Positions 4,814 through 35,394 of a DNA stretch of 41,514 nucleotides are shown in pieces. The position numbers were made by a program, and so were the translations under genes. Origin of the DNA: an archaeon. Lineage in GTDB: Archaea > Nanobdellota > Nanobdellia > SCGC-AAA011-G17 > GW2011-AR20. The notes beneath the pieces were generated by a model. The model saw nothing but the letters and a program-made list of their open reading frames with translations. It had not been told where the DNA came from and did not search any database. The stretch is from assembly GCA_002687185.1 (NCBI GenBank), contig NYZO01000090.1, positions 1 through 41,514 on the forward strand, written 5' to 3'. How positions within the stretch are numbered: position 1 is the stretch's first letter; each line of letters starts with the position of its first letter.

Positions 4814-4829
4814 GGTATTTAAACCTTTT
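4814..4829 (-). promoter_or_regulatory. BRE/TATA promoter of the wHTH-NTase pair
   Basis: The minus strand reads AAAAGGTTTAAATACC, centred ~28 nt upstream of the ATG at 4791, consistent with a leaderless or short-leader mRNA. Confidence 0.45.
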
Positions 4830-4955
4830 GATTGGACACACAATGCTATAGATTCTCAGAGAGACCACGTGTTATTAGACCCCCATTCAAAGATAAAAGT
4901 CTACAAAATTACAGAAATTGTTGATCATAATTTGGACAGATCTAATTAACTATAA

Positions 4956-5573
4956 TCAATGCGCACTAATTAGGTGAAAGTCTTTTCTTTCTAAATCAGC
5001 AACATATTTCAGATATTCTTTGTAGGTATTATTAAACGTAACATTCTCAAGCATCGTTTGGTATAACTTATCGTATCCTAGAAACTGCTTTAAACATGAT
5101 ACAATTCTATCGTTTTGAAAAACTGTCAGTCCAAGATCGATAGGACCTTGGATTCGGTGTTGAGTTACTTCTATGAGACGATCATTTGCGTGAGTAAACT
5201 TACCGTAACCAATATCTACTTGATTCCCGTTTGGAAAATTAATATAATGTTTATCTACTTGAGACTCAATATCGGTATAAAACTCTATTAAAAAGTGAGG
5301 TAAGCTGATTGTTGCATCTTTGGGATCAACTAACTCTTGGATCACTAATTCATAAAAGCAACCCTCGCCTGATAACCAATCCATAGTAGCATACGAGAAA
5401 TCTAGGCAAGGATGACGGTAAAAAACTAACTCCTCTTCTAAAATATTTGGCATAGTGCCTTTTCCGAATCGTTTAAGAACTAAATCGTTAGGTAACCAAC
5501 CAAGTTGAATATTTCTATTCAAAAAATCAATGAACTTGTTAGATGGAACCTGGACTTGGTCTTCTGTCATCAA
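4956..5573 (-). CDS. hypothetical protein (205 aa)
   Basis: ORF with normal composition. No motif recognised. Confidence 0.45.
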   Translation of the reverse strand: MMTEDQVQVPSNKFIDFLNRNIQLGWLPNDLVLKRFGKGTMPNILEEELVFYRHPCLDFSYATMDWLSGEGCFYELVIQELVDPKDATISLPHFLIEFYTDIESQVDKHYINFPNGNQVDIGYGKFTHANDRLIEVTQHRIQGPIDLGLTVFQNDRIVSCLKQFLGYDKLYQTMLENVTFNNTYKEYLKYVADLERKDFHLISAH

Positions 5574-11425: not shown

Positions 11426-11698
11426 ATGAAACTTATTATTATGAAAAAATTAACACTATACCAACTAGAAACATGCCCGTATTGTATCACTGCACGTGAA
11501 GCCTTGGACGAGAAAGGAATAAAGTACGAAGTAGTGAACGTGCCAGGGCCAAGACCTGATAGAAAAGAAGTAATTGAGATCTCAGGACAAGCTGAAGTGC
11601 CAGTACTTGTAGTTGAGGAAGAAGGTAAAAAACAAGTAATATTTCATGACGAGAAAATTATTGAATATATTAACGAACATCCAGAGTTGAGTAAATAA
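11426..11698 (+). CDS. glutaredoxin-like protein
   Basis: 90 aa with a CPYC active site after a beta strand (LTLYQLETCPYCITAREAL) and a thioredoxin-fold length. Confidence 0.75.
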   Translation: MKLIIMKKLTLYQLETCPYCITAREALDEKGIKYEVVNVPGPRPDRKEVIEISGQAEVPVLVVEEEGKKQVIFHDEKIIEYINEHPELSK

Positions 11699-11704
11699 AC
11701 CGAA

Positions 11705-12697
11705 TTATGAATCGCAAGCTTGACTATTCGTACAATCAGGATCATTACTACAACAAGCAGTTACTTGTGACGGAATTGTCCATTGAGCGCTTTGATAATC
11801 AAGCGGGCAAACGCCGTCGGATACTGTGTCGCAATGTTTGACAACAGCACCAGAACACATCGAAATGCCAGGAGCGTTACAAACCTGACCGCTACAACCT
11901 ACACCGCCAGGGCAACAAACCAACGTATAACAATAACATTTCTCGCCTGATGCACAAACGCCACTTTGACTTTCGTCATCTTCAATATGGTAATAACCAG
12001 CATCGTTACTACAGGTGCCAAGAGGATCAGTACAGCCTGATGGCTGACTCGGAAGGACACTGCAACCACTAATATCGTAATTACCTAAACTGGTGCAGTA
12101 TTCGTCACAAGTCCCAAACGATGGAGGGAGGGTTGTAGTCGTTGTGCCGCCTGGAATAGTTGTTGTAGTACTACCAGGTAACGTAGTCGTAGTCGTTGGA
12201 GGCGGTGGCTGGACAACAGCAGTTGATGGACAAACACCGTCAGGGGTTGTGATACATACATGGATACCGCCAGTGTCAGCTGAAGTGGCCACGATCTTTA
12301 ATCGGTGAGTACCCTCACTTGATGGAAGAGTAATGGTCTCTCCAGAAATCTTTTTGCCCAACTGAATGTCAACGTTTGATCTAACAGCCACTTGGCTTTG
12401 AGCGCCGGTTGGAGCGCTTGTAACGAACACAATCTCGTCACTATTATCATCAACTAACACATATTCTATGCCGCCAGGAAAACGCACATCAATAGTATTT
12501 TGTGAGCCCTCGCCCAAATAATAAATGCTCTCTGCTTGTTTGATGATCTCTTTGCTGATAGCTTGGGTTTGACTCAAGTCTGTTTGATACTCAGAATCGG
12601 TTGTATACACAGTAAAGATTATCATAGTTGGGATCAAAAGTACTAATACAATGCCTACCAAGATTACATATTCAGTCGCAATCTGGCCACGTCTCAT
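11705..12697 (-). CDS. type IV pilin-like protein fused to a Thr/Pro linker and Cys-rich modules (putative pilus adhesin)
   Basis: Class III signal peptide MRRG|QIATEYVILVGIVLVLLI with Glu at +5. Thr/Pro linker at aa 164-192 (12122-12208). 12-Cys module at aa 197-273 (11879-12109). A second Cys motif at aa 281-328 (11714-11857). Confidence 0.75.
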   Translation of the reverse strand: MRRGQIATEYVILVGIVLVLLIPTMIIFTVYTTDSEYQTDLSQTQAISKEIIKQAESIYYLGEGSQNTIDVRFPGGIEYVLVDDNSDEIVFVTSAPTGAQSQVAVRSNVDIQLGKKISGETITLPSSEGTHRLKIVATSADTGGIHVCITTPDGVCPSTAVVQPPPPTTTTTLPGSTTTTIPGGTTTTTLPPSFGTCDEYCTSLGNYDISGCSVLPSQPSGCTDPLGTCSNDAGYYHIEDDESQSGVCASGEKCYCYTLVCCPGGVGCSGQVCNAPGISMCSGAVVKHCDTVSDGVCPLDYQSAQWTIPSQVTACCSNDPDCTNSQACDS

Positions 12698-12700
12698 TAG

Positions 12701-13144
12701 TTATGCCTCGACCGTCCCTGAAATAGTAAAAACAGAAGAGTGATCAAGACTTCCGCCGTCAAGCTTGTAATTAATAGATACAGTACCAGAATAAAAACTG
12801 TCAGCATCTAAGCCAGTAATAGTGCAAGTTATGGTGTCAGTCGGAAATGTGTCCCACCCATTACAGCTTGATGGAACTCCATTAATCTCAATTAAAACTG
12901 TAGGTTCTGGACTTGTTTCAATGCCAGTGCCAGTAATATCAAGCTCAATCTGGTTCGCGCCTGCACTCACCTTCAAATCGTTACACACGAACGGGTCGAT
13001 AAAAGAACACTGAGTCGGGACTGAAACACGACCCTGAGTCAAAAAGAACGCAGCGCCAACACCAATGCCGATCAATAATAAAGCGAACCCGTAAGTTGTT
13101 AAAAATTCTGTTGCCGCTTGACCTTTTCTCATATATTTTGCCAT
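12701..13144 (-). CDS. type IV pilin-like protein (candidate major pilin)
   Basis: Class III signal peptide MAKYMRKG|QAATEFLTTYGFALLLIGIGV with Glu at +5. Small 147-aa beta-rich body. Its start overlaps the upstream stop by 1 nt (TAATG). Confidence 0.75.
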   Translation of the reverse strand: MAKYMRKGQAATEFLTTYGFALLLIGIGVGAAFFLTQGRVSVPTQCSFIDPFVCNDLKVSAGANQIELDITGTGIETSPEPTVLIEINGVPSSCNGWDTFPTDTITCTITGLDADSFYSGTVSINYKLDGGSLDHSSVFTISGTVEA

Positions 13145-14160
13145 TATGTACCCACCCCTTGAAAAAACTTTCCTATAACTTTAATCAAGAAAAAGAATAA
13201 TAAGATAGAAATGCCTGCAAACACAGGGATAGTCTTTAAACCTTCTTTAGCGTTACCTTTGCGTACAGCAGATATGATCAATGACGAAAAAATAGAACTG
13301 ATAAGTAAGATGACAACCACAAACCACTGGAACATATCAGGCGTGATTTGGATAGTGCCTAAACTGAGCGGTAACTGCGATTGGCTTAATGTACTCTCAA
13401 TAGACGCGAAATCAACTTGGGATAATAAATTTTCCATTAAAGTGATCAATTGCAAAGCAACAGCGAACAACAGTGGAGACGCGACCACTGTGCTGAATGC
13501 GATGAAAATAACATAAGTAGTAACACTTGATGAAACTTCTTTGCGCATGATTGAAGATTCCTTGATGTTCCATGCGATCTTGTTCAATAATTCGCCGACA
13601 GCGCCACCAGCCTCAATGCCCTCAACAAGTAATGTAATAGATTTTTTGAGTGTGTCAGAATTGAAACGTTTAGTGAATGAAATTAGTGCCTCCTCAAGGT
13701 CAGAGCCGGTCATGGTCTTTTTGGCTGCGATCTGGATCTCTTGGGCAAGGATGCCAAAACGTGGTCGTACAGCAAACCATAGTGCTTGGTCAATAGTCAA
13801 TCCAGAGTCGACATTAGCAGCAACCAATTGCAAATAGTCAGACAGGACCGATTCGACAGCTACTGTGCGTTTGTGGATGCGCAGAATAATATACGAATAA
13901 AGACCTAAGGCAGCCACAAGAGCCCCACCAACTAAATAGACTAAAAATGACACAAGAAATGATAAAACAATCCCACCACCAGACAGTAAAGCAAGGTTTG
14001 ACTGAGGCAAGGCAATAGACAATATCGTTGCGCCAATACCAAGCAAAAACGTAATAATGACACCAAAAAGCATGATGTCAGCAGCAGTCCTTTGAGTGCC
14101 AGTCTTTTTCATGATCTCATTAAACTTTTTCTCCATGGTCGGCGTGAGCATTATGGCCAT
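13144..14160 (-). CDS. T2SSF-domain pilus platform protein (TadC/EpdK-like half)
   Basis: Polytopic membrane protein with one cytoplasmic T2SSF-like domain (LQLVAANVDSGLTIDQALWFA ... LVEGIEAGGAVGELL). Confidence 0.7.
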   Translation of the reverse strand: MAIMLTPTMEKKFNEIMKKTGTQRTAADIMLFGVIITFLLGIGATILSIALPQSNLALLSGGGIVLSFLVSFLVYLVGGALVAALGLYSYIILRIHKRTVAVESVLSDYLQLVAANVDSGLTIDQALWFAVRPRFGILAQEIQIAAKKTMTGSDLEEALISFTKRFNSDTLKKSITLLVEGIEAGGAVGELLNKIAWNIKESSIMRKEVSSSVTTYVIFIAFSTVVASPLLFAVALQLITLMENLLSQVDFASIESTLSQSQLPLSLGTIQITPDMFQWFVVVILLISSIFSSLIISAVRKGNAKEGLKTIPVFAGISILLFFFLIKVIGKFFQGVGT

Positions 14161-14161
14161 G

Positions 14162-14989
14162 TTAAATACTCACCCCTGGACGAGAACCCTGAATATACAA
14201 CAAGAAAAAAAGCTGAGCGAAACCTACCAGACCAGCAACCACGTACAATAACTTAATATCAAGCGGGATAGTAGACAAAAACATGGACAAGATTAAAATG
14301 ATAACCACACCCAAAGACGGCATAATAACTGTCACCATAAGATAAAACATAACGATAGGGTTTAGCTTGCGACCATAATCGCGCATTTCAACAATCTGCT
14401 CTGCAGTGATTTGTTTGAGGATCGCTTGCAAGGCTTGAGCCATGTCAGCACCAGTAGCTAACGCGTTCATGATCTGCCATAGAAATGTACGGAAATAAGC
14501 AGACGGAGTAGTGTTAATCAAGGTTTCAATGGCTTTGTCGATGGGTGTTCCAAGGCTTACGCGCTTGATCACGCTAGATAGTTCTTTGCTAATCTCACCG
14601 TAACCAGAAGAGGCGTTTGCAATAGCGTTATATAAAGGAACACCAGAAGTTAACTCAATTAAGATATATCTACCCGCAAAGACTACATCAGCGTCGATCT
14701 TTTTTTGCTTAGATTTCATCTTGAACACGGGCTGTTGCAGGAAGTAATTGAAAAATAAAAATGGGGTGAACAAGGTTAAGATTAATACGATGATAATGAA
14801 GATATTGAAGCCGAACCGGATTAAGGCCAATAATAAAACGAAAAATAATAATACACCGCCCATGATGAGAGCGCGCATTAACGATTTTCGAATGAACTCT
14901 TCAGGAGTGTTTTCTATGCCGGCTTGCTGAAGCTGAGCTTTGAAACCAGCTTTTTTGCGAAGCGTTGATCTTACAATTTGTTCTAGCAA
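14162..14989 (-). CDS. T2SSF-domain pilus platform protein (TadB/EpdJ-like half)
   Basis: Polytopic membrane protein with one T2SSF-like domain (LIELTSGVPLYNAIANAS ... IMNALATGADMAQAL). It lies 1 nt from the next gene. Confidence 0.7.
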   Translation of the reverse strand: MLEQIVRSTLRKKAGFKAQLQQAGIENTPEEFIRKSLMRALIMGGVLLFFVLLLALIRFGFNIFIIIVLILTLFTPFLFFNYFLQQPVFKMKSKQKKIDADVVFAGRYILIELTSGVPLYNAIANASSGYGEISKELSSVIKRVSLGTPIDKAIETLINTTPSAYFRTFLWQIMNALATGADMAQALQAILKQITAEQIVEMRDYGRKLNPIVMFYLMVTVIMPSLGVVIILILSMFLSTIPLDIKLLYVVAGLVGFAQLFFLLYIQGSRPGVSI

Positions 14990-14996
14990 TCTTTCA

Positions 14997-16502
14997 TCAC
15001 CTAGGCACGCTTGGTTTTTGTTGGGTTTTTTGAGGATGCTCTTGAGGAGATTTGATTTTGTTTAATAATGCTTTCTTGTTTGCGTAATATGCGGCAATAA
15101 CACGACCAACAGCATCAACTGTGTTAACACGGTTTTTGACCAGCCAATGTAATACTATCTCTTTCTCAGCTAAGTCGTTAGATAATTCAGGCAAACTCAT
15201 GCCGGTGTGCAACGCCAGACGCTTGATTAATGTGTTAGACTGGGCAACAGCGTTGATTTTGTTTGTGCGAGTGTCTAATTTGAATAATACATGAGCTCCA
15301 CCTCTCTCGTCAACCTCTGCAAACTCTAACATTCTACGGATGCCGGTGCGCCTGTTACGGTACATTACTAAAATGCCTGCAATGGCTGGGAGCATTAATA
15401 CAGGAACGTTAATAGGAGGGCTTGTTAAACGTGTGATCAGCTCAGCAGTATTATCAGCGTGCACTGTCGCATAAACTGCGTGACCTGTGTGGATAGACTC
15501 AAAGAGTACTTGAGCTTCACGCTCGCGACGGATCTCGCCAACAACAATACGGTCAGGGCGCATTCTTAGAGAGTTAATCATTAAGTCCAGCATGGAAACC
15601 TCGCCCTTGCCTTCAGTGTTTGGGAAACGCACGACCATAGGAACCCAATGAAGAAATTTAGGCAAACGCAATTCTAGGGTGTCCTCAATTGAGATGATTC
15701 GTTGGTTAGGCGGGAAGAAACCTGAAATTGCATTCAATGCGCTTGTCTTACCAGACGCGGTACCGCCGCTAACTAAAAGAGACATCTCGTATTGGCATGC
15801 CATCCAGACCAAAGCTGCAAGCGGCAGTGAAATAGTGCCCTCACTCAAGAAATCAACAATTGTCCAAGGCTTTGACGCGAACTTACGCAGAGTGATTGTG
15901 TTACCGCGCTTTGAAATTGGTGAAATAGTAGCATTAACACGGTCGCCGGTCTCTAGGTGCGCGTCCATAAGCGGCTTGAGAACAGTTATAGCACGACCAA
16001 CTTGTCGGCCGATCAAATTTGAATAATGACGAATTTGAGCCTCGTCTTTTAATTGGATATTAGTTTTGAGCCAACCGTGCTTGTGATGATAGACCCAAAT
16101 TGGCTCGGCAGCGTTATTGATCGCGATCTCTTCTAAATTACTATCGTCAAGTAAAATCTCTACCTTGCCCATGCCTAAGCTTTTTTGGATTAGATATGTC
16201 TTGAAAAAACTAGCAGCGCTAGGAGATACCGTTGGAAAGAATTGTGAAATTTTGATCTTGACCTGGGACTCGAACTTCTCTCTGATACGGTCCTTTTTTT
16301 TCGGGTCGGTCAAATCAGCCATGTCTAAATTGACTTCATCGACTAATAAATCTTTGATCTTGTTGAGAATAAGCTCAGTGTTCGGACTTAAATTTGGGAT
16401 GGATAATTCGTATACACGGACGAACTCGTCAGGCTTGGTCCTAATACGAACATAAATGGGAATGTTCTCTGAATAAAACTTGTAAGATTCAATGGCCACC
16501 AT
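14997..16502 (-). CDS. type IV pilus/secretion ATPase (FlaI/TadA/VirB11, GspE family)
   Basis: Walker A GGTASGKTS, Walker B/Asp box RPDRIVVGEIR, His box HTGHAVYATVHA, and an N-terminal ITLRKF-type motif. Confidence 0.85.
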   Translation of the reverse strand: MVAIESYKFYSENIPIYVRIRTKPDEFVRVYELSIPNLSPNTELILNKIKDLLVDEVNLDMADLTDPKKKDRIREKFESQVKIKISQFFPTVSPSAASFFKTYLIQKSLGMGKVEILLDDSNLEEIAINNAAEPIWVYHHKHGWLKTNIQLKDEAQIRHYSNLIGRQVGRAITVLKPLMDAHLETGDRVNATISPISKRGNTITLRKFASKPWTIVDFLSEGTISLPLAALVWMACQYEMSLLVSGGTASGKTSALNAISGFFPPNQRIISIEDTLELRLPKFLHWVPMVVRFPNTEGKGEVSMLDLMINSLRMRPDRIVVGEIRREREAQVLFESIHTGHAVYATVHADNTAELITRLTSPPINVPVLMLPAIAGILVMYRNRRTGIRRMLEFAEVDERGGAHVLFKLDTRTNKINAVAQSNTLIKRLALHTGMSLPELSNDLAEKEIVLHWLVKNRVNTVDAVGRVIAAYYANKKALLNKIKSPQEHPQKTQQKPSVPR

Positions 16503-16508
16503 CTTTTT

Positions 16509-17093
16509 TTAATGAGCATGCAGGTTGCCCATATAGCTTGCGATTTTTTGCAGGTTATTTTCGAATGCTTTGGTTTGGGACTCAATCTTTTTAAATCTTT
16601 CTCTCAAACGTACGAAATGGCGATACTTCTCTTTGTTAACCTCGAACTGTTTTAAATCAACGAGGAGTTTGAACGTTTGTTCTTCAAGCAATGTTTTCTG
16701 GTCTAAGATGATCGCGAGCGGTTTTGCAAGACGTTTCTTCTTACGCGGTCTCAGATCCAAATACTCTTTTTTTAACCATAATAAAAATTCGCGCTTGGCT
16801 TTGATGTCTTTGATGGTAGCTTGTGCTTTGATCAATAGAATATCACGCTCCTTTTCCATGTCTTCTTTGCTTTTCTTTAGATGTTTTATACGATTGGGAT
16901 CGGAAATAGTAAGATAAGGCGTAGAAAACTTATAATCTATCTGGAAAATCTTTGCCTCTTCTAAGAAAACTGCCCACTCGTGCACGATTGCTACTGGTAG
17001 GTTTAATTGTTTAGCAGCCTCGTCGATTGAGATGCGTTTTTCATTCTTAACAATATTAATGAACGTATCAACAGCAGTCTTAATCTCTTCCAT
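16509..17093 (-). CDS. wHTH plus coiled-coil accessory protein of the pilus locus
   Basis: HTH-like N-terminus (ISIDEAAKQLNLPVAIVHEWAVFLEE) followed by a Lys/Glu-rich coiled coil. It ends 6 nt upstream of the ATPase gene and has its own BRE/TATA. Confidence 0.5.
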   Translation of the reverse strand: MEEIKTAVDTFINIVKNEKRISIDEAAKQLNLPVAIVHEWAVFLEEAKIFQIDYKFSTPYLTISDPNRIKHLKKSKEDMEKERDILLIKAQATIKDIKAKREFLLWLKKEYLDLRPRKKKRLAKPLAIILDQKTLLEEQTFKLLVDLKQFEVNKEKYRHFVRLRERFKKIESQTKAFENNLQKIASYMGNLHAH

Positions 17094-17155: not shown

Positions 17156-18694
17156 TCAGGTCTGGCACTCAATTTTGTTAATTTTCAGACCGTTACCAGC
17201 GCCGGTTGCATAATTGTCATCAGAATCTGTCTCGAAAGTGATGATCTTTGGATCATAGATATTCGGATTAAGTGTTGCGGTCAATTCACCATTATCTTTT
17301 CCGCTAATACTTTGTCCACCAACTATGCTAAAGACGTCTTTATTTAATTCAGTATCTATAATATACGTAAACTTAATCGTGTTTGTGCCTATTGGACATG
17401 TACAAGCAGTTGAACAACCCAAACCATCAATGTAATCATTGTGCCAGACATTGACACCTAAACCACCGTTTACACCATCCACTAAGCTCGGACATGAAAA
17501 AGCTGGACAGCTAGGAGGAGGAGGCGCAGGACTACAATCGCAACAAGTACGAGATAGAGGACTTTCTCGACAAAAGTCTGGTTGAGGAATGGTATAACTG
17601 CTATCTACACCGTATGAACAGTAACTAGTACAAGATTGGCTCGTACAAGAATATCCGCCATTACAACCCACATCAATACCACAAGAACAAGTACTTAAAC
17701 CGTATTGTCCAGCCAAGCCTGAGTCAAACCGGAAATTAGTTTCAGACCCGCTAGGATTGCATAAAGGTTCACTGCTAATGCTTACAACACAATCGTCGTC
17801 GTCTGCACTCACACCACCGTAATATTGCCAATCGAGTAATCGGTACTTTTGACTGTTACCACCAACATGGCCAGGTAGTAATGGGCGCTCTATGCCTAAA
17901 CTACTTGAACCAGGGCTTGGTTTGAACCTGTCAAGATAACTCCGGCCGCCGTTGCGCTCAACAAACTCTTGGTCGTTTGCAACGCTTGTATAATCAGTAG
18001 GTGAATTTGGAAACGATGATGCTTGGATAATCTTTAATTCACCACCGTTACGCAAAAGTATCGGATCTTGTGCAAAGTCAATTAAGCTAACGCGTGGAGT
18101 GATAGAGAACGTTCGGTCAAGGTCGATTTTTGGGTCTTGGGTAGACAATTCTAAACGGACACTAAACGGTTGACCGTCTGGCTGCTGTACAATAACTGAC
18201 CATGCATCGTCTTGAGTTATTTTGAGATCTGAGTCATCGAGGTTTTTTAAAGGTCCTCCTGAAGCAACACCCGTTAAGGTGATTTCGGTGCTGTCAAGGC
18301 CGGATTTTCCAGATAATGATTCAAACGAGGCTATTTGTTCTGCGATAGTGAAATCGTCCATGAACGAGTTTGTCACGCCGCCAGATCCGTCGATGCTGCC
18401 GTAGATCATAAGATTTGAGATCGCAGTTGGCGGATCGTTAAATGCAGAATTAGTATTGTCTTGTTTTAACTCGTCTTGCATGGCTACTAAAGCCTGTTTT
18501 AATGATAACTTCATAATGTCAACAATAAACGCGTCTTCAATATTACTACCAAAATCGGTCAAAGTAGTAACCCGAATCTGGTCAACAGTGATCTCGGTTT
18601 TTGTGTCTCTTATCTGATACGTTAAAAATAAAGCTAATAAAATCAAGACCAAACCAGCGGTCATAATAGTGAAGAAAAAACCGCGCCTATTCAT
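17156..18694 (-). CDS. large pilin-like protein with a Cys-rich region
   Basis: Class III-like N-terminus MNRRG|FFFTIMTAGLVLILLALFL. Cys-rich segment at aa 302-433 (17396-17791) containing CCDCSPAPPPPSCPAFSCP. Its start overlaps the upstream stop by 8 nt. Confidence 0.65.
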   Translation of the reverse strand: MNRRGFFFTIMTAGLVLILLALFLTYQIRDTKTEITVDQIRVTTLTDFGSNIEDAFIVDIMKLSLKQALVAMQDELKQDNTNSAFNDPPTAISNLMIYGSIDGSGGVTNSFMDDFTIAEQIASFESLSGKSGLDSTEITLTGVASGGPLKNLDDSDLKITQDDAWSVIVQQPDGQPFSVRLELSTQDPKIDLDRTFSITPRVSLIDFAQDPILLRNGGELKIIQASSFPNSPTDYTSVANDQEFVERNGGRSYLDRFKPSPGSSSLGIERPLLPGHVGGNSQKYRLLDWQYYGGVSADDDDCVVSISSEPLCNPSGSETNFRFDSGLAGQYGLSTCSCGIDVGCNGGYSCTSQSCTSYCSYGVDSSYTIPQPDFCRESPLSRTCCDCSPAPPPPSCPAFSCPSLVDGVNGGLGVNVWHNDYIDGLGCSTACTCPIGTNTIKFTYIIDTELNKDVFSIVGGQSISGKDNGELTATLNPNIYDPKIITFETDSDDNYATGAGNGLKINKIECQT

Positions 18695-20663
18695 TCAAAC
18701 CAACCTCGACGCCGATAATACTAGGATCCTGAATAGATGGCGCTGGTAGCGTTGTTGTTGTAGTGGTGGTGGTTGTAGTCGTAGTAGTAGAAGTTGTGGT
18801 AGTTGTGCCGCCAGGTAACGTAGTAGTTGTGGTCCCCCCACCGCCTGTTGCACAAGCGCTACCATCAGCTGTGCAGATATTGTCTGGACAACAAGTGAGT
18901 TCAATACAACGGCAAGTTCCGGCGGCGCAAGTGCCCCCTAGAGCATCAAATATTGTTCCTTCGCCGGCGTTTGGCAAACAAGAAGTGAACGATTCCATGC
19001 AGAACATGTCCGAAGGAGTGACTTGGCAGGTCGATAAATAAGTAGGATCAAGATCAGTACAATACTCCTGACAAGATACCCCTGGAGGTATTCCTGGAGG
19101 TGGTGGAGTACATTCATTACCATCACAAGGGCCGAAATTACAACAACTGACCATGCCACAATAACAACTTTCGCCCAAGATTGGACAACTACCACCGCCG
19201 AACTGGTAATGAATCTCGCCTGAGCCAGAACACTCTAGCGGTATTGAATCTGAACAAATACTGGCAGGCAAACTCGAACCGCATATGGATTCAGTCGTGC
19301 CGAAGATGTCATTACACGAAGTAGCGCAATCATCAATTTCAGGGATAGTTGTTGTGGTCGTGGTTGTTGTAGTTGTAGTGGTGGTAGTTGTAGTCGTTGT
19401 AGTAGTAGTTGTAGTTGTGGTTGGAGGAGTAGTGTCACAAGAAACGCCGTCAGCTGTACAAAGATTTTCTGTACAACAAGATATGTCAATACAATAACAA
19501 GATTCGCCAGGGTTGCAGGTGCCGCCGCTGCCTGAAATGATTAAACCTTCACCGGCGTTAGGTAAACAAGAAGTGAACGATTCTATGCAAAAATCAGTTA
19601 CTGGTGTGGTTGAGCATGACGGAAGGTAATTAGGATCAAGGCCTGTACAATATTGTGAGCAAGTAGGTACTATAGGCGGCGGTATAGGAACAGAACAATC
19701 AATTCCGTTTGGATCACACTGATTGGTATCACAACAAGTTACAGTGCCACAATAACATGATTCTCCAGGGTCGCATGTGCCGCCGCCGGGTTGGTAGCGT
19801 ATCTCACCAGTGCTGGTAGCAGGGCACTCAGAAGGTATTGATTCAGAACAAATATCGCCAGGCTGGCTTAATTCACACCTTGGTTGTGTTGAGCCGAATA
19901 CGTCGCTGCAGACCGTAGCACAATCATCAGCAGGGATCGTAGTCGTAGTAGTCGTTGTAGTAGTAGTAGTAGTGGTTGTAGTAGTAGTGGTGGTAGTCGT
20001 AGTAGTGGGAGTCGAGCCGCATGCAGTACCGTCAACAGAACAAAGATTTTCTGAGCAACAACCTAAATTTACACACAAACAAAACTCGCCAGGGTCACAA
20101 AGATCAGCACCCCCTGGCACATAATTTAGGACGCCTGCATTTGGACTGCACAAATCAGTGAAGCAACTGTCCGGACGGGTTGCATCATCCCAACAGCCAC
20201 CGCCGAAATAGGTATTTGCAACGCAATCAGCTTGGCAGGTTGGTGAAGGCACGGTTGTAGTGGTGGTAGTCGTTGTAGTAGTTGTGGTAGTTGTTGTGGT
20301 TGTAGTCGTTGTAGTAGTAGGAGGAATAGTCGTTGTTGTGGTTGGTTCTATAGTGGTTGTTGTCGTTGGAGGGATAGTCGTAGTAGTGGTGGTCGTAGTT
20401 GTAGTAGTCGTGGTAGTGGTCGTAGTAGTTGTGGTGGGGGGAGGACAAGAATCACATTGAGGATCGCAACACTCGCCGTCGCTAGGACAACTCACCTTAT
20501 TTCCATAATCGCTTGGACAGACCGCGTCAACATCACCGCAAGTATAAGTTATAGTAGAACAAAAAGTAATATACGGACACGCTGCGTTAACTGTTTCTAG
20601 ACCAATAGAAAGAAAGAATACTAAAGAAATAATAATTATAATATATTTTACCCTGTTCATCAA
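18687..20663 (-). CDS. secreted mosaic Cys-module/poly-Thr surface protein (putative adhesin)
   Basis: Sec-type signal peptide (cleavage near VNA|A). N-terminal 9-Cys domain (aa 28-76). Five 12-Cys modules (aa 143-219, 248-334, 335-414, 446-530, 531-610) separated by poly-Thr tracts. No C-terminal TM anchor. Confidence 0.8.
   Translation of the reverse strand: MMNRVKYIIIIISLVFFLSIGLETVNAACPYITFCSTITYTCGDVDAVCPSDYGNKVSCPSDGECCDPQCDSCPPPTTTTTTTTTTTTTTTTTTTTIPPTTTTTIEPTTTTTIPPTTTTTTTTTTTTTTTTTTTTTTVPSPTCQADCVANTYFGGGCWDDATRPDSCFTDLCSPNAGVLNYVPGGADLCDPGEFCLCVNLGCCSENLCSVDGTACGSTPTTTTTTTTTTTTTTTTTTTTTTTIPADDCATVCSDVFGSTQPRCELSQPGDICSESIPSECPATSTGEIRYQPGGGTCDPGESCYCGTVTCCDTNQCDPNGIDCSVPIPPPIVPTCSQYCTGLDPNYLPSCSTTPVTDFCIESFTSCLPNAGEGLIISGSGGTCNPGESCYCIDISCCTENLCTADGVSCDTTPPTTTTTTTTTTTTTTTTTTTTTTTTTIPEIDDCATSCNDIFGTTESICGSSLPASICSDSIPLECSGSGEIHYQFGGGSCPILGESCYCGMVSCCNFGPCDGNECTPPPPGIPPGVSCQEYCTDLDPTYLSTCQVTPSDMFCMESFTSCLPNAGEGTIFDALGGTCAAGTCRCIELTCCPDNICTADGSACATGGGGTTTTTLPGGTTTTTSTTTTTTTTTTTTTLPAPSIQDPSIIGVEVGLNE
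18750..18833 (-). repeat. C-terminal Thr-rich tract (T5-LPGG-T5-S-T13)
   Basis: Read from the ORF translation, aa 611-638. Confidence 0.85.
18834..19922 (-). repeat. tandem duplication of a two-module unit (period ~590 nt) inside the 658-aa gene
   Basis: Modules 2+3 (19422-19922) and modules 4+5 (18834-19328) are collinear: CATVCSDVFG.../CSQYCTGLDPNY... versus CATSCNDIFG.../CQEYCTDLDPTY.... An identical 20-mer, AAACAAGAAGTGAACGATTC, occurs at 18976-18995 and 19564-19583. Confidence 0.8.
19347..19421 (-). repeat. poly-Thr coding tract (25 consecutive Thr codons)
   Basis: Codon-by-codon reading places it between CDTTPP and IPEIDD. ACN codons are mixed. Confidence 0.9.
19938..20006 (-). repeat. 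poly-Thr coding tract (23 consecutive Thr codons)
   Basis: Codon-by-codon reading places it between CGSTP and IPADD. ACC, ACT, ACA and ACG codons are mixed. Confidence 0.9.
20253..20435 (-). repeat. Thr/Pro-rich spacer coding tract (61 codons: ~T20-IPP-T5-IEP-T5-IPP-~T22)
   Basis: Run of mixed ACN codons read codon by codon on the minus strand. It produces a poly-Val pseudo-ORF on the plus strand. Confidence 0.9.
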
Positions 20664-20701: not shown

Positions 20702-20718
20702 GAATTTATATAAAGCTT
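20702..20718 (-). promoter_or_regulatory. internal BRE/TATA promoter of the 658-aa gene
   Basis: The minus strand reads AAAGCTTTATATAAATT ~44 nt upstream of the ATG at 20663. A GAGGG Shine-Dalgarno-like element lies ~10 nt upstream of the ATG. Confidence 0.5.
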
Positions 20719-20744
20719 TTGCTCATTTTTCCTTGATACAGAAT

Positions 20745-21215
20745 TTATCCTTGCTGAACACTGACGCCAGATTGAATCCTGCGTGACACAACAACAATGC
20801 GCGAATCAGTGGTTGCGACTGAGTTGTCGAGGTTCATCTTGAGTGAATATTGTTTAGTATACAACCCTTCTACAAGCTGTCTTTTCATACAATCTATCCT
20901 AGTGAGTTCCTCTCCATCACAGGTTATTGTTAGTGTGCCGAATTCGTCATCGTAAACACGCATCTGCTCAATCACCGTTAAATCAGTGTCAAGATCGCTA
21001 AACTGAGAGTCAGTAATGAAAGGATAATAACCCTCATCTTGTTTAAGCTCTTCAATCCTTACGTTTGAAAGTACATCCAAAGTATCAGTTGCTAAATATT
21101 GTAATTGAGTTAGAGGAGGTGAATTAATATAAAATAAATGGACCAATAAAACCACTAACGTAAACAATACTAAAGCTAGAATCGCGTCCAGTGTGAAAAA
21201 ATAGCCGCGTTTCAT
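20745..21215 (-). CDS. pilin-like protein (minor pilin candidate)
   Basis: Class III-like N-terminus MKRG|YFFTLDAILALVLFTLVVLLV. 156 aa. Confidence 0.6.
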   Translation of the reverse strand: MKRGYFFTLDAILALVLFTLVVLLVHLFYINSPPLTQLQYLATDTLDVLSNVRIEELKQDEGYYPFITDSQFSDLDTDLTVIEQMRVYDDEFGTLTITCDGEELTRIDCMKRQLVEGLYTKQYSLKMNLDNSVATTDSRIVVVSRRIQSGVSVQQG

Positions 21216-21216
21216 A

Positions 21217-21819
21217 TTATTCGGTCCAGACCAACACAGTCATCCTCAATATTCTATCATACGTGTCATCAACAAACACTAAACGGTTGAACTCAATTAT
21301 TTGTTTGATCTCTTTGTTTTGGACGCGTGTTTCAATCTCGTCTCTAACCTCTGTGACCGTGGTCCAACCGCCATCATCGTTGTCGACATGTAATTTTCCA
21401 GCGCCTGTGTGTCCTGGTGCCGGATAAATAATCGATCTATCATTAAGATAAACATAAAAATGTTTGTTAGTGCCAAGTCGAAGCTGGGCTTTTGCGTAAT
21501 TCTGATCAGTTAACGTGCCGTCGCCTAACTTACGTAACTTATCCAGATTAAAACGTTTATTACCGTCTGTTAAGCCGAGTTGTTTTACCGATGGATCGTC
21601 CCACCACTCACTATGGGTATTCCAATCCGTTGGCTCTCCAACAGCGATCAAATTTTGACTGATCTCTTGAGCTTCAATTAGTAACCCTTCAGTTAAGTTC
21701 TTAGTTTGTGTCATGCCAATCACTGTTTTTACGAAAATGAGCGAAATAATACTAATTATTATGATCGCCATGATAAAGTCCATGTACCAAAATTGACCAC
21801 GCTTTTTAATCGGTTTCAT
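21217..21819 (-). CDS. pilin-like protein (minor pilin candidate)
   Basis: Class III-like N-terminus MKPIKKRG|QFWYMDFIMAIIIISIISLIF. 200 aa. It overlaps the upstream gene by 4 nt. Confidence 0.6.
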   Translation of the reverse strand: MKPIKKRGQFWYMDFIMAIIIISIISLIFVKTVIGMTQTKNLTEGLLIEAQEISQNLIAVGEPTDWNTHSEWWDDPSVKQLGLTDGNKRFNLDKLRKLGDGTLTDQNYAKAQLRLGTNKHFYVYLNDRSIIYPAPGHTGAGKLHVDNDDGGWTTVTEVRDEIETRVQNKEIKQIIEFNRLVFVDDTYDRILRMTVLVWTE

Positions 21820-22250
21820 AGTGATGATTGTACACTCACAGTTATATCTCCGTTTATGTCTTTATTAATTTTGATGAAACGGTTTTGTGGAGTTATGTCG
21901 ATATCCAATGGAGTGTTAGATATTTCTATAGGCAAAAGCTTTGCAGAGGTGGACGGTTGACCTAAAATATTGGTCTGTACAGCGATCTCACGAGCGCCAA
22001 ATTGCAAAGAATACTCTTCTCCTGCAATGTCTGGGGGTAAGCTAAAAACACGCTCGTATTCAGGCCTTACACGGCCGGCTAACGATAACTCAGTTTTTAC
22101 TTTTAAAGCAATGTCTTCAGCACTGAACGTTTTACGTGCGCTGACAACATCGCGCGTATAAATAAATTCGATAGTGATAAAACCGATCAATAATATCATG
22201 GCAAGAGAAACCAGTAAAATTAATTCAATGGAAACCTGGCCGCGTCTCAT
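21816..22250 (-). CDS. pilin-like protein (minor pilin candidate)
   Basis: Class III signal peptide MRRG|QVSIELILLVSLAMILLIGF with the QxSxE pattern and Glu at +5. 144 aa. First gene of the locus. Confidence 0.7.
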   Translation of the reverse strand: MRRGQVSIELILLVSLAMILLIGFITIEFIYTRDVVSARKTFSAEDIALKVKTELSLAGRVRPEYERVFSLPPDIAGEEYSLQFGAREIAVQTNILGQPSTSAKLLPIEISNTPLDIDITPQNRFIKINKDINGDITVSVQSSL

Positions 22251-25096: not shown

Positions 25097-25239
25097 GGGC
25101 CCGTAGCTCAGCCTGGTTTAGAGCACTGAGGTTTTGTTTTACGACTAAATCGTGTAGGTCTTATATGACGGTCGTCGCTGCAAGCGGCGGGCATGTCTAA
25201 GCCAGCCAGAGGTCAGGGGTTCAAATCCCTTTGGGCCCA
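25097..25239 (+). tRNA. tRNA-Ile(UAU) with two introns (exons 25097-25128, 25158-25165, 25204-25239)
   Basis: Hand-folded. Acceptor GGGCCCG/TGGGCCC, D arm GCTC/GAGC, T arm AGGGG-TTCAAAT-CCCTT, discriminator A. Removing 25129-25157 (29 nt, position 29/30) and 25166-25203 (38 nt, position 37/38) gives a 76-nt tRNA. Its anticodon arm is CTGGT-CTTATAA-GCCAG. Both introns sit in helix-bulge-helix-bulge-helix motifs. Confidence 0.75.
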
Positions 25240-25248
25240 AACTAAAAT

Positions 25249-25323
25249 GCCCCTGTGGTGTAGTCCGGTCAATCATTCGGCCCTTTCGAGGCTGGGACCC
25301 GGGTTCGAATCCCGGCGGGGGCA
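25249..25323 (+). tRNA. tRNA-Glu(UUC)
   Basis: 75 nt. Acceptor GCCCCTG/CGGGGGC, anticodon arm CGGCC-CTTTCGA-GGCTG, T arm CCGGG-TTCGAAT-CCCGG. The GTGGTGTAGTCCGG...AATCAT D region is typical of archaeal tRNA-Glu. Confidence 0.9.
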
Positions 25324-25498
25324 GATTTTTAAGAAATTATAGATGAAGTATCTGAAAAGAGAACCAAAAGACTAAATTAGAATTATTAGAATGTCATGGC
25401 AAAAAACAATACCTCACTATGAAAAAAGTTACACTATCAGTACAGATCGCTTCCCGGTTGATTTTTCGAGCTTCCCTTTTCGTCACTATCAATGAAGA

Positions 25499-33147: not shown

Positions 33148-35394
33148 ATGATCCCGCTAAAAACAATTGACGATTATACACTCACTGGTAAAAAGATATT
33201 AGTTAGGATCGACTTAAACACTACACTAATAAAAGGAAAACCAACCGTGTCTGAGAGATTTATAGCGCATGCACACACTATTGAAAAGCTAGTTAAAGCA
33301 AATGCTGCAGTAGTTCTAATCGCACACCAAGGAAGGCCAAAACAACGCGACTGTATCTCGCTAAAAAATCATTTTAAACTTCTTAGAAATTGTCTTGGGC
33401 CAACAAACAGATCAAAATTTAAATTTATTGATGATACGATAGGGGCCAAAGCAATAGACGCAATATGTCACGTGCGGCCAAGAGAGATGATATTACTTGA
33501 AAATGTACGGTTTGTCAATGATGAAACTAAATATAAACAAGGACAGAAAAATAAACTCGTAGAAACACTTGCCCCTTTGTTTGATTATTATGTGAACGAT
33601 TCTTTCTCTAATTCTCATAGAGAGCACGCGTCAATGGTCGGGTTTGCCAAACAACTAACAAGTATAGCTGGGCCGGTACTATTATGTGAATATAATGTCC
33701 TTTGTAGAGTTTTAAGTAAAGAAATGCCAAGGCCATATTATATGGTGCTGGGCGGGGCGAAGCTTGATGAAACTATTAGTTTAGCTGAAGAAGTATTGGA
33801 GAACGAGTGTGTTGATAAAATACTTACAGCCGGACTGTTCGGTGAGTTGTGCATGATAGCTAAAGGCGCGCCAATAAAATTGAAAAACCTACTATACAAA
33901 GGAAAATCGCCTTTAACATACCTACCAAGAGTTAAACGACTGCTCAAACAACATCGGAGTAAGATTGTAACGCCTGTAGATGCTGCTTTTAAGAAAAGCG
34001 AAAAAAGGATTGAAATTAGGATTAACGCATTGCCGGCTAATGGACGGTTCTTGGATATAGGCATGCGTACAATCGCTTTGTATACCAAACTACTCAACCA
34101 TGCAACAACAGTTTTTTTTAAAGGGCCGCTAGGAGTGACTGAACAACCTTGTTTCCAAAAAGGTACGCGAAATATCTATAAGGTTATTGCGCAACGGCCG
34201 AAAAGTATAGGAGGAGGCGGTGATACATTAAGTGCAATATCACGGCTTAGGATTCGGAGCTCTCGATTCTCGTATCTTAGCCTTGCAGGAGGCGCTATGG
34301 AAGAGTTCTTAGTTGGGAAAAAATTACCAGGGATACAAGCATTACAATTGAATCAGAAGAAGAGCGTTCCAAAAATAAACCCGCTAAAACATAACCAATG
34401 TACACCAAAAAACGGGTTTGATATTATTACTTGCGGCTCAGGACTTGTGGATGTTTTCTTAGAGACCGGCCAATCAAGCGTTAAGATCAAAAAAGGGCAC
34501 GCATCAAACTGTTATATTACGTTCCCTGTAGGTGAAAAATTAGTTATGCAAGACAGACACGTTGATATTGGAGGCGGGGGTACGAATACAGCAGTTGCTT
34601 TCTCAAGATTAGGACTTAAGGTAGGCTACCTAGGCTGTTTGGGAAAAGATCAAAACGGGAAGAAAATACTTAAATTACTCAATAAAGAACGAATAACATT
34701 TTTAGGTACATTAAGTGACAAACCGACCGGCTATTCAGTTATATTAGATACTAAAGAAAAGGATAGGACGATCCTAACCTACCGTGGTGCAAGTAACTGG
34801 CTAAACTTCAAAGATATTAATACTAAAAAACTTAAGACGCAATGGATTTATTTCTCAGGGATGCTTGGACAATCACACCAAACACAAAAGCGCCTTGCTG
34901 TGTGGGTAGAAAAACAAGGCTATAAACTAGCGTTTAATCCGAGCAGGTACCAGTGTCAACAAAATCTACGGTCACTTCGGCCAATACTAAAACATACGAC
35001 AGTATTAATACTCAATAAAACTGAAGCGCAAATATTATCAGGACAAAAAAAAATAAAAAGTATCTTCAGAGCACTGCATGCCAGAGGGCCAGACATAATA
35101 ACTGTTACTGATGGTGCTCGTAAAATTTATTGTTCTGATGGATACCATATCTATAAACTTATTCCCAATAAAACGCGAATTGTGGAGAATACTGGGGCGG
35201 GGGATGCGTTCGGAGCAGGGTTTGTTGCAGGGTTTATTATGTCAGGTGATATCGGCTTGGCATTACGGTTAGGGCTTATCGAGAGCAAAGCAGTGTTGAG
35301 CGCGTTCGGTGCTAAAAATGATCTGCAAAAATTGTCCAAAGCTAAAAATCTCTTAGAACAAAGTCGATTGATCGTGAAAAAGGAGTTATGGTAG
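33148..35394 (+). CDS. pgk: phosphoglycerate kinase fused in frame to a PfkB-family sugar kinase
   Basis: PGK motifs (AHQGRP, NDSFSNSHREHAS, GGGGDT, C-terminal FLVGKKLPGIQAL) span up to about nt 34350. After a ~20-aa linker comes a PfkB domain from about 34417: GGGGTNTAVAFSRLG and NTGAGDAFGAGFVAG. No stop codon or frameshift lies between the two domains. Confidence 0.8.
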   Translation: MIPLKTIDDYTLTGKKILVRIDLNTTLIKGKPTVSERFIAHAHTIEKLVKANAAVVLIAHQGRPKQRDCISLKNHFKLLRNCLGPTNRSKFKFIDDTIGAKAIDAICHVRPREMILLENVRFVNDETKYKQGQKNKLVETLAPLFDYYVNDSFSNSHREHASMVGFAKQLTSIAGPVLLCEYNVLCRVLSKEMPRPYYMVLGGAKLDETISLAEEVLENECVDKILTAGLFGELCMIAKGAPIKLKNLLYKGKSPLTYLPRVKRLLKQHRSKIVTPVDAAFKKSEKRIEIRINALPANGRFLDIGMRTIALYTKLLNHATTVFFKGPLGVTEQPCFQKGTRNIYKVIAQRPKSIGGGGDTLSAISRLRIRSSRFSYLSLAGGAMEEFLVGKKLPGIQALQLNQKKSVPKINPLKHNQCTPKNGFDIITCGSGLVDVFLETGQSSVKIKKGHASNCYITFPVGEKLVMQDRHVDIGGGGTNTAVAFSRLGLKVGYLGCLGKDQNGKKILKLLNKERITFLGTLSDKPTGYSVILDTKEKDRTILTYRGASNWLNFKDINTKKLKTQWIYFSGMLGQSHQTQKRLAVWVEKQGYKLAFNPSRYQCQQNLRSLRPILKHTTVLILNKTEAQILSGQKKIKSIFRALHARGPDIITVTDGARKIYCSDGYHIYKLIPNKTRIVENTGAGDAFGAGFVAGFIMSGDIGLALRLGLIESKAVLSAFGAKNDLQKLSKAKNLLEQSRLIVKKELW

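Follow-up and report, generated by a model that had tools for sequence, protein, structure and literature searches.

Does an archaeal pilus subunit carry a cysteine-rich domain that is also found in a secreted protein, and if so, what might this domain do at the cell surface? The question is raised by contig NYZO01000090.1 (assembly GCA_002687185.1), whose 41,514 nucleotides (nt), the whole stretch that was analysed, are called the window here. A type IV pilus operon on the minus strand of the window closes with the gene of a 330-amino acid (aa) protein (11705-12697), located 3 nt after the gene of a 147-aa pilin, and it also includes the gene of a 658-aa secreted protein (18687-20663). Going by the sequences, we think it probable, and well short of certain, that the 330-aa protein is a modular type IV pilin displaying a new disulfide-rich effector domain in an uncultured marine Woesearchaeota-like (DPANN) archaeon. 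We regard its modular pilin architecture as nearly certain and the chances of an adhesive function of the module as about even.

The cysteine module of the pilin and of the secreted protein

The 330-aa protein starts with MRRG, after which cleavage would leave QIATEYVILVGIVLVLLIPTMIIF, a class III signal with Gln at +1 and Glu at +5. The initial annotation had pointed to this signal (MRRG/QIATE, the slash marking the cut) and to a linker, PPPPTTTTTLPGSTTTTIPGGTTTTTLPP, in front of a cysteine module, and both are present in the sequence. It had assigned the Cys-rich part to 11714-12109; on the minus strand these positions correspond exactly to residues 197-328 of the 330-aa open reading frame (ORF), from CDEYC to NSQAC. 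The first portion of this part is a 12-Cys module (residues 195-275, 11873-12115, minus strand), whose Cys residues lie at 197-273 with spacings of 4,11,10,7,19,6,2,5,1,6,5. The five modules of the 658-aa protein have spacings of 4,10-11,9-10,5-8,15-17,5-7,2,5,1,5,5-7. All six share the pattern C-x3-C-x(9,10)-C-x(8,9)-C-x(4,7)-C-x(14,18)-C-x(4,6)-C-x-C-x4-CC-x(4,5)-C-x(4,6)-C, and non-Cys positions, AG and GE[SK]CYC among others, are common to them. In pairwise comparisons the pilin module is 24-38% identical to the 658-aa modules, with 7-17 non-Cys identities.

The similarity was measured with a hidden Markov model (HMM) built from the five modules of the 658-aa protein only. This HMM scored the pilin module at 25.8 bits with all 12 Cys aligned, in agreement with the collinearity proposed in the initial annotation, whereas 2000 composition-preserving shuffles gave a mean of -9.8 (standard deviation 3.3) and a maximum of 9.1. 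Because the best shuffle stayed so far below the observed score, the homology of the module is taken to be real. The profile test for compositional bias had been set beforehand, and by this test the module similarity is significant beyond composition. Two Cys-rich and Thr-rich proteins might otherwise be alike by chance or low complexity: both are rich in Cys, Thr, Gly and Ser, and two of the three significant database matches to the module profile are spurious repeat proteins. We reject this explanation for the module and give it a practically negligible probability, since the pilin module scores about 11 standard deviations above the shuffles, the 12 collinear Cys are accompanied by the conserved non-Cys positions, and the independent homologs P0003 and P0004 (described below) keep the pattern.

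Run over the 658-aa ORF, the module HMM gave five matches of 70-99 bits each, all on the minus strand: module 1 (residues 141-217, 20013-20243), module 2 (residues 246-325, 19689-19928), module 3 (residues 333-411, 19431-19667), module 4 (residues 444-520, 19104-19334) and module 5 (residues 529-606, 18846-19079). Modules 2 and 4, which are 57% identical, and the module of P0003 are of type A; modules 3 and 5, which are 59% identical, and the module of the window pilin are of type B. Both subtypes are thus found on pilins. Module 5 is the closest to the pilin module (38% identity), and module 3 is among the closest. Modules 2+3 and 4+5 represent a duplicated two-module unit of about 585-590 nt. 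A separate observation concerns the end of module 2 (19632-19715), which holds 23 of the 24 positions at which the window differs from an independent Tara scaffold (L001, 13.65 kb aligned, 99.8% identical). This 84-bp patch includes a 6-nt indel; in it, CDPNGIDCSVPIPPP is replaced by CNGNVCDDPPPIP, a sequence similar to the end of module 4. The patch could stem from gene conversion of one module by another, from variation of a single loop among strains, or from a chimeric assembly of repeats.

The three database matches came from an exhaustive HMMER profile search of 1.84 billion representative proteins, in which P0003 was the sole true hit; P0001 and P0002 were rejected as module homologs and are unrelated repeat proteins. 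A word-index search with a seven-module alignment gave nothing at E<=0.01, a metagenome scan with the type-A module alignment matched nothing, and the HMMs of the module and of the pilin tail found no further copies in the six-frame ORFs of 80 related loci and the whole window. Neither the 658-aa protein nor the pilin C-terminus had a match in Pfam or NCBIfam, and the Pfam scan of the 658-aa protein returned no family at E<=0.1. Against PDB sequences the module profile had 0 hits at E<=10, and Foldseek found no fold match in PDB for the module model (best E 1.1, TM 0.22). The CxxxC of the module falls in a predicted helix (3-10) and its CxC in a predicted strand (59-67). This arrangement is reminiscent of a defensin-like cysteine-stabilised alpha/beta motif, which is at most a lead, as Foldseek recovered no defensin or toxin structure. 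Judged by these searches, the module appears to be an undescribed Cys-rich domain of about 80 residues.

The pilin part and further carriers of the module

The N-terminal part of the 330-aa protein (residues 1-152, 12242-12697, minus strand) consists of the class III signal (MRRG/QIATEY, cut at the slash), a hydrophobic helix and a globular part predicted to be beta-rich. For comparison, a query with the pilus ATPase of the window collected 80 loci from GTDB genomes (51-62% identity), many of them labelled Woesearchaeota or Nanoarchaeota. With residues 1-166 of the 330-aa protein as query, 43 clear orthologs were found in these loci, one per locus. They are about 135-185 aa long, are almost always encoded by the first gene of a conserved string, and head a five-gene pilin-like cluster upstream of the pilus ATPase. 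Fourteen aligned orthologs end where the window protein reads ...HVCITT (residue ~152) and contain 0-2 Cys (none in 11 of the 14); the 12-Cys module is absent from all 43. Q+1 and E+5 are invariant across the family alignment. Pfam Class_IIIsignal (PF04021) matches the 330-aa protein with 22.3 bits (E 1.2e-4), just below the cut-off of 23.7, and is found at E<0.01 in 7 of 12 family members. From these alignments, the N-terminal ~152 residues can be assigned to a conserved, single-copy pilin family of Woesearchaeota type IV pili, and the initial annotation's description of a bona fide pilin is borne out by a pilus-operon family with 43 orthologs that end at the fusion point.

Everything beyond residue ~152 is by the same comparison a lineage-specific addition, consisting of a putative Cys148-Cys156 staple, the linker, the module and the tail. 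The junction and linker, PDGVCPSTAVVQ (residues 153-194, 12116-12241, minus strand), contain PPPP, TTTTT and LPG, and a Pro-rich linker is found at the same place in P0004. Cys156 probably staples to Cys148 within the junction. The gene has also been relocated to the 3' end of the operon in the window lineage, as opposed to its first place in relatives. The pilin linker (12132-12204) and the C-terminal linker of the 658-aa protein (18793-18830) share the peptide TTTTTLPG[GS]TTTT, and their DNA is 76% identical over 38 nt. The linker sequence may have travelled together with the 12-Cys module.

The AlphaFold2 model of the full-length 330-aa protein has a helix at residues 5-61, strands at 66-150, a stretch with pLDDT <50 over residues 159-190 (disordered linker) and then a separate small alpha/beta module. 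Its mean pLDDT is 62 and its pTM 0.37; at this low confidence, the modelled layout is pilin-like and in agreement with a division into pilin, linker and module. Foldseek with this model gave no significant pilin match, nor did the profile of the pilin family against PDB, where the best pilin hit had an E of 1.8.

Archaea use class III signals also on non-pilus proteins, and in the Sulfolobus bindosome substrate-binding proteins carry such signals. The 330-aa protein might thus use its signal for export and membrane anchoring without being a filament subunit, and its module would act at the cell envelope. The sub-threshold Pfam match of the signal is in line with this idea, as is a sub-threshold match of the ATPase to BasE; the latter is 149.7 bits against a cut-off of 1000, however, and the ATPase scores higher against FlaI and TadA. 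Pfam detected no substrate-binding domain. In 43 of the related loci, the conserved family of the pilin part shares its locus with a multi-copy pilin, two TadC genes and four further pilin-like genes, which is the layout of a pilus locus. We therefore consider a bindosome-like role very improbable.

Related genomes were surveyed for pilins with and without the module, as the initial annotation had proposed, and besides the module-less orthologs the fused form was found in a second lineage as P0004. This protein was detected with a 330-aa query from which the linker had been removed; the full-length query gave nothing from 8000 candidates, the poly-Thr words probably saturating the word index. 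P0004 has 334 aa, aligns with 129 bits and is 33% (BLASTP) or 42% (MAFFT) identical to the 330-aa pilin. It has the same four parts as the window protein: a pilin domain with an HVCITT..CPST junction, a linker that is Pro-rich where that of the window protein is Thr-rich, a 12-Cys module (spacing 4,9,14,6,21,5,2,5,1,6,7) and a tail with 7 Cys (CPLDF...CCQEDPNC). Over the second half of the module and the tail, the BLASTP E value is 9e-8. The P0004 locus is syntenic with the window, with an ATPase 75% identical, TadC proteins 63% and 56% identical, a 140-aa pilin 57% identical and a convergent glutaredoxin gene. The retention of the four-part architecture at 33-42% identity in a syntenic locus suggests selection on the whole fusion. 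A metagenome scan with the pilin alignment recovered only one more contig of the P0004 organism. The 330-aa protein of the window is itself encoded, in identical form, on 7 marine metagenome contigs, Tara Oceans assemblies among them.

P0003 is a pilin fragment on a 658-bp marine contig (L006, CEPX01299783). By its N-terminal part it is a member of the 147-aa pilin family (E 7e-8); next come a Thr linker and a module that is 52-61% identical to the type-A modules 2 and 4. The domain shuffling between pilin and secreted protein that the initial annotation had suggested is directly supported by this distribution, because the module occurs on two different pilin families (the 330-aa pilin and P0003) and on one non-pilin protein with a Sec-type signal. 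It has thus been transferred repeatedly from carrier to carrier. If P0003 is a shaft subunit, the module would be able to decorate the filament body too.

P0003 also bears on a structural alternative, in which the extended pilin is frequent or the whole shaft is decorated, and the Thr linkers and disulfide knots make up a glycosylated brush or matrix, resistant to proteases, which would give protection or stiffness to the pilus or cell surface without specific binding. Poly-Thr stretches are typical O-glycosylation regions of archaeal surface proteins. The module of P0003 is carried by the multi-copy 147-aa family, which is likely the major pilin, and a third protein of the locus, of 512 aa, has also gained a Cys-rich extension. 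A position of modular pilins in the filament body is possible if the linker is flexible (Raynaud et al., PMC8179133). The carrier family of the 330-aa protein is single-copy, however, and its gene is grouped with other pilin-like genes of low copy number; in relatives, the neighbouring slot of the operon encodes vWA domains of the adhesion type, and a structural spacer would need no five tandem copies on a separate secreted protein. On balance such a coat is distinctly unlikely, and we continue to favour a modular pilin with an effector domain.

Operon context, the pilin tail and the N-domain of the secreted protein

The window operon encodes, in order on the minus strand, proteins of 144, 200, 156, 658, 512 and 194 aa, the ATPase, two TadC proteins, and the 147-aa and 330-aa proteins; class-III-type N-termini are present in 6 proteins. 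Its ATPase and TadC platform arrangement is also present in the 80 related loci. The conserved string, which the orthologs of the pilin part almost always head, reads 330N-type (the pilin part without the addition), 144-type, 200-type, 156-type, 512-type, 194-type, ATPase, TadC, TadC and one to three 147-type genes. The first gene of the operon encodes the 144-aa pilin-like protein (21816-22250; MRRG/QVSIE, the slash marking the cut here and below). It is followed by the 200-aa pilin-like protein (21217-21819; KKRG/QFWYMD), with 43 homologs in related loci, and by the 156-aa pilin-like protein (20745-21215), a short form of a family that mostly has 650-1650 aa in relatives. Downstream of the 658-aa gene lie the genes of the 512-aa pilin-like protein (17156-18694; MNRRG/FFF...), whose residues 1-300 match orthologs of ~315-390 aa, and of a 194-aa accessory protein (16509-17093), which is upstream of the ATPase and conserved in related loci. 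The accessory protein has ~380-410 aa in nearly all of these loci and may be truncated or split in the window lineage. The FlaI/TadA-like assembly ATPase (14997-16502) matches Pfam T2SSE with 119.7 bits and NCBIfam FlaI with 260 bits (below cut-off), and the two TadC/FlaJ-like platform proteins (14162-14989 and 13144-14160) match Pfam T2SSF with 58.8 and 50 bits. The 147-aa pilin (12701-13144; MRKG/QAATE) has 78 homologs in the 80 loci, 1-3 per locus; as a member of a multi-copy family downstream of TadC in relatives, it is the candidate major pilin.

The 658-aa protein has a Sec-type signal, ...SIGLETVNA/ACPY by eye, followed by a 9-Cys N-domain and the five 12-Cys modules with poly-Thr linkers, and has no C-terminal membrane anchor. 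A putative archaeal promoter, the BRE/TATA-like element AAAAGCTTTATATAAA (20705-20720, minus strand, identified by eye), lies about 45 nt upstream of its start. The possibility that the protein is a read-through product of the 156-aa gene was rejected: the two share a frame but are separated by two in-frame stops, and the 658-aa gene has the TATA-like element and its own signal peptide.

The slot taken by the 658-aa gene, between the 156-aa and 512-aa genes, is in most relatives occupied by the long C-terminal part of a pilin-like protein, as the 156-aa family has 650-1650 aa in most related loci. Three of four large members scanned have a vWA domain by Pfam: L063 (2616-7523; sub-threshold VWA_2, 22.9 bits), L025 (4543-7368; VWA_2, 30.7 bits) and L055 (3770-7528; VWA, 35.7 bits), all in related Woesearchaeota loci. 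The fourth, a 640-aa member in L049, had no Pfam match. The large homologs share a C-terminus, ...VPYLWGP..EVRVWQ. Judged from these domain matches, the vWA-bearing proteins appear to correspond, in archaea, to PilY1 and to modular pilins of the vWA type. A short 156-type gene directly adjoins the 512-type gene in L007 and L045, which by ATPase identity (59% and 58%) belong to the nearest relatives. The 512-aa protein has a lineage-specific extension (residues ~300-512, 17159-17797) with 18 Cys and motifs such as CSCGIDVGCNGGYSCTSQSCTSYC and CCDCSPAPPPPSC, which is absent from the ~315-390-aa orthologs. This extension was tried as a third copy of the module or tail and rejected, its scores being within the shuffle range. 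The insertion of the 658-aa gene, the Cys-rich extension of the 512-aa protein and the module-bearing pilin suggest that the extracellular, non-core parts of the pilus were rebuilt around disulfide-rich domains in the window lineage.

The initial annotation had seen a second motif shared by the pilin and the secreted protein, and this claim stood in part. The pilin tail (residues 276-330, 11708-11872, minus strand), which is conserved in P0004, has 7 Cys at residues 281-328 in the pattern C-x7-C-x7-CPLDY...CC-x5-C-x5-C. Its similarity to the 9-Cys N-domain of the 658-aa protein (residues 28-75, 20439-20582, minus strand) is weak and lies mainly in C-x6/7-C-P-x-D-Y and CC-x-DP-x-C. The Smith-Waterman score of the two was 61, which 2 of 3000 shuffles reached (32.9 +/- 6.3). 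An HMM of the two tails (window and P0004) gave the N-domain 4.3 bits, a score reached by 4 of 5000 shuffles (-7.5 +/- 2.8); when the same HMM was run over the whole 658-aa ORF, the N-domain was not recovered. A relationship above chance (p ~1e-3) is therefore probable but marginal.

The likeness of tail and N-domain is the basis of a docking model, in which the tail or module of the pilin is a receptor for the 658-aa protein, through pairing of like domains or an intermolecular disulfide of odd Cys, so that a multi-module glycoprotein is tethered to the pilus. Such docking has a precedent in enterotoxigenic E. coli, where the secreted CofJ uses an N-terminal segment to bind CofB, a minor pilin at the tip, in its C-terminal domain, and TcpF and TcpB of Vibrio cholerae behave like CofJ and CofB. 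The genes of the 330-aa and 658-aa proteins are in one operon, and their tail and N-domain share the two motifs above chance. The tails of the window protein and of P0004 have 7 Cys each and the N-domain has 9, and the totals in the mature proteins are also odd (21 in the 330-aa protein and 69 in the 658-aa protein). An odd count may equally mean one free or buried thiol, however, and the similarity that docking requires is marginal and was lost in the whole-ORF scan. We regard docking as rather unlikely; it is compatible with the favoured reading of a modular pilin with an effector domain, as an added step.

A bolder form of this idea, which we would call a long shot, is that tail and N-domain form a dedicated coupling pair, perhaps via an unpaired cysteine as implied by the odd Cys counts. 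The end of the pilus would then carry, covalently or tightly bound, a glycosylated string of about 650 residues with five disulfide-knot modules, which would have replaced the vWA adhesin of relatives, and a neighbouring glutaredoxin gene would have been inherited along with the Cys-rich set. If true, this would be a new kind of pilus-borne 'fishing line' by which a DPANN archaeon catches its host.

The glutaredoxin gene of the window (11426-11698, plus strand; CPYC motif, Pfam Glutaredoxin 56.3 bits) and the pilin gene lie on opposite strands, with 6 nt between their 3' ends. L087 has a similar arrangement: its glutaredoxin gene (4817-5050) is also on the strand opposite to the Cys-rich pilin gene and close to the 3' end of the latter, and an 89-aa gene separates the two. 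Both module-bearing lineages therefore have a glutaredoxin by the Cys-rich pilin gene, and none of the 80 module-less loci has a homolog within +/-10 kb of the ATPase. The window glutaredoxin is without a signal peptide, so that any link to disulfide formation would be tentative, and shared ancestry could explain the association.

Two observations concern other parts of the window. An Rfam tRNA call at 25097-25239 (plus strand, 143 nt, 42 bits), directly upstream of tRNA-Glu (25248-25324) and absent from the ARAGORN output, is probably an intron-containing archaeal tRNA. A single 748-aa ORF (33148-35394, plus strand) is a fusion of two enzymes, with residues 7-391 matching Pfam PGK (phosphoglycerate kinase) at 314.5 bits and residues 466-727 matching a PfkB-family carbohydrate kinase at 130.4 bits; it is preceded, with a 1-nt overlap, by a 342-aa ORF that is GAPDH-like by eye.

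Proposed mechanism and relation to known pilus systems

How might such a pilin act? In the mechanism that we favour, a prepilin peptidase would process the pilin part, which would then become a subunit of the filament. Its most likely place would be at the tip, together with other low-copy pilin-like proteins, as suggested by analogy with bacterial minor pilins. With the pilin part inserted there, a flexible stalk, probably O-glycosylated, would keep the disulfide-locked module and the tail at a distance from the filament. Module and tail would be the binding (adhesive) end of the pilus, for example in attachment to a host cell or particle, and the 658-aa protein would present the same effector in multivalent form, either free or attached to the pilus. 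Both functions considered in the initial annotation, display of the module on the pilus and interaction between modules, are plausible.

Several points weigh against this mechanism. The tip location and the minor-pilin status of the 330-aa protein are drawn from bacteria, and in the models of Makarova et al. (PMC4858521) the minor pilins of archaea are at the base. The module shows no ligand-binding signature and matches no known fold or family, so that the adhesin reading comes from context, namely from the vWA-bearing pilin-like proteins of relatives at the locus position of the 658-aa gene. There is no prepilin peptidase gene within the 41.5-kb window. The module family was seen in three lineages only, all metagenomic, and confidence in the two structure models (pLDDT 73 and 62) is low to moderate.

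A life attached to other cells is assumed for DPANN archaea, and the locus offers a concrete, testable candidate domain for the biology of this attachment. The new Cys-rich domain of about 80 residues and its 7-Cys companion domain could be expressed and screened for ligands. The locus would also extend to archaea the modular-pilin principle established in bacteria, and it indicates that the effector end of one pilus system was exchanged within a lineage.

Modular pilins are widespread in bacteria and probably tip-exposed, and they have effector modules in common with PilY1/PilC, a tip adhesin that is not a pilin (Raynaud et al. 2021, PMC8179133). By its architecture the 330-aa protein falls under the definition of a modular pilin, having a pilin part and an extra domain that also occurs outside pilins. 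Like PilB (pilin and vWA) and PilC (pilin and lectin) of Streptococcus sanguinis (PMC8179133), it is a pilin of ordinary size with a linked C-terminal module, and its gene is in the pilus operon. In both cases the extra module is also found in non-pilin proteins and display at the tip is proposed. In contrast to the bacterial proteins, it is archaeal, with a class III signal of archaeal type and FlaI/TadC machinery; its linker is long and Thr/Pro-rich instead of a short loop; and its extra parts are an undescribed 12-Cys domain and then a 7-Cys domain. The pair of 330-aa and 658-aa proteins resembles PilY1/PilC (PMC8179133) in that a single pilus system has one effector module on two proteins, of which one is a pilin and the other is not. 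The 658-aa protein differs from PilY1/PilC in that Pfam detects no carrier domain in it, be it a beta-propeller, DUF2341 or vWA.

The vWA-bearing giants of Woesearchaeota are encoded in the same operon and in the same slot, between the 200-aa and 512-aa family genes, and have a class-III-type N-terminus followed by a large extracellular region with an adhesion-type domain. The window differs in that its gene encodes only the 156-aa pilin part, a separate Sec-exported protein with Cys modules comes after it, and another pilin of the set bears the Cys module. CofB/CofJ of enterotoxigenic E. coli and TcpB/TcpF of V. cholerae (CofB is mentioned in PMC8179133) are like the window in having a minor pilin with linked C-terminal domains and a secreted non-pilin in the operon; they have no sequence or fold relationship to the window proteins, whose docking is speculative and comes from a marginal motif similarity.

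In euryarchaeal pilus loci, five or more minor pilins are encoded along with large proteins that resemble adhesins (Makarova et al. 2016, PMC4858521), and the layout of the window locus matches them on this account. Loci of the Epd type (PMC4858521) share with the window an ATPase, two TadC-like genes, at least five low-copy class-III proteins, a dedicated major pilin and large secreted or adhesin-like proteins. Their adhesin-like component has DUF2341, whereas the window has the novel Cys module, which is also fused to a pilin. The principle of modular pilins is thus known from bacteria; what is new here is that an archaeon has a modular pilin whose Cys-rich domain is novel and recurs in a secreted partner from the same operon.

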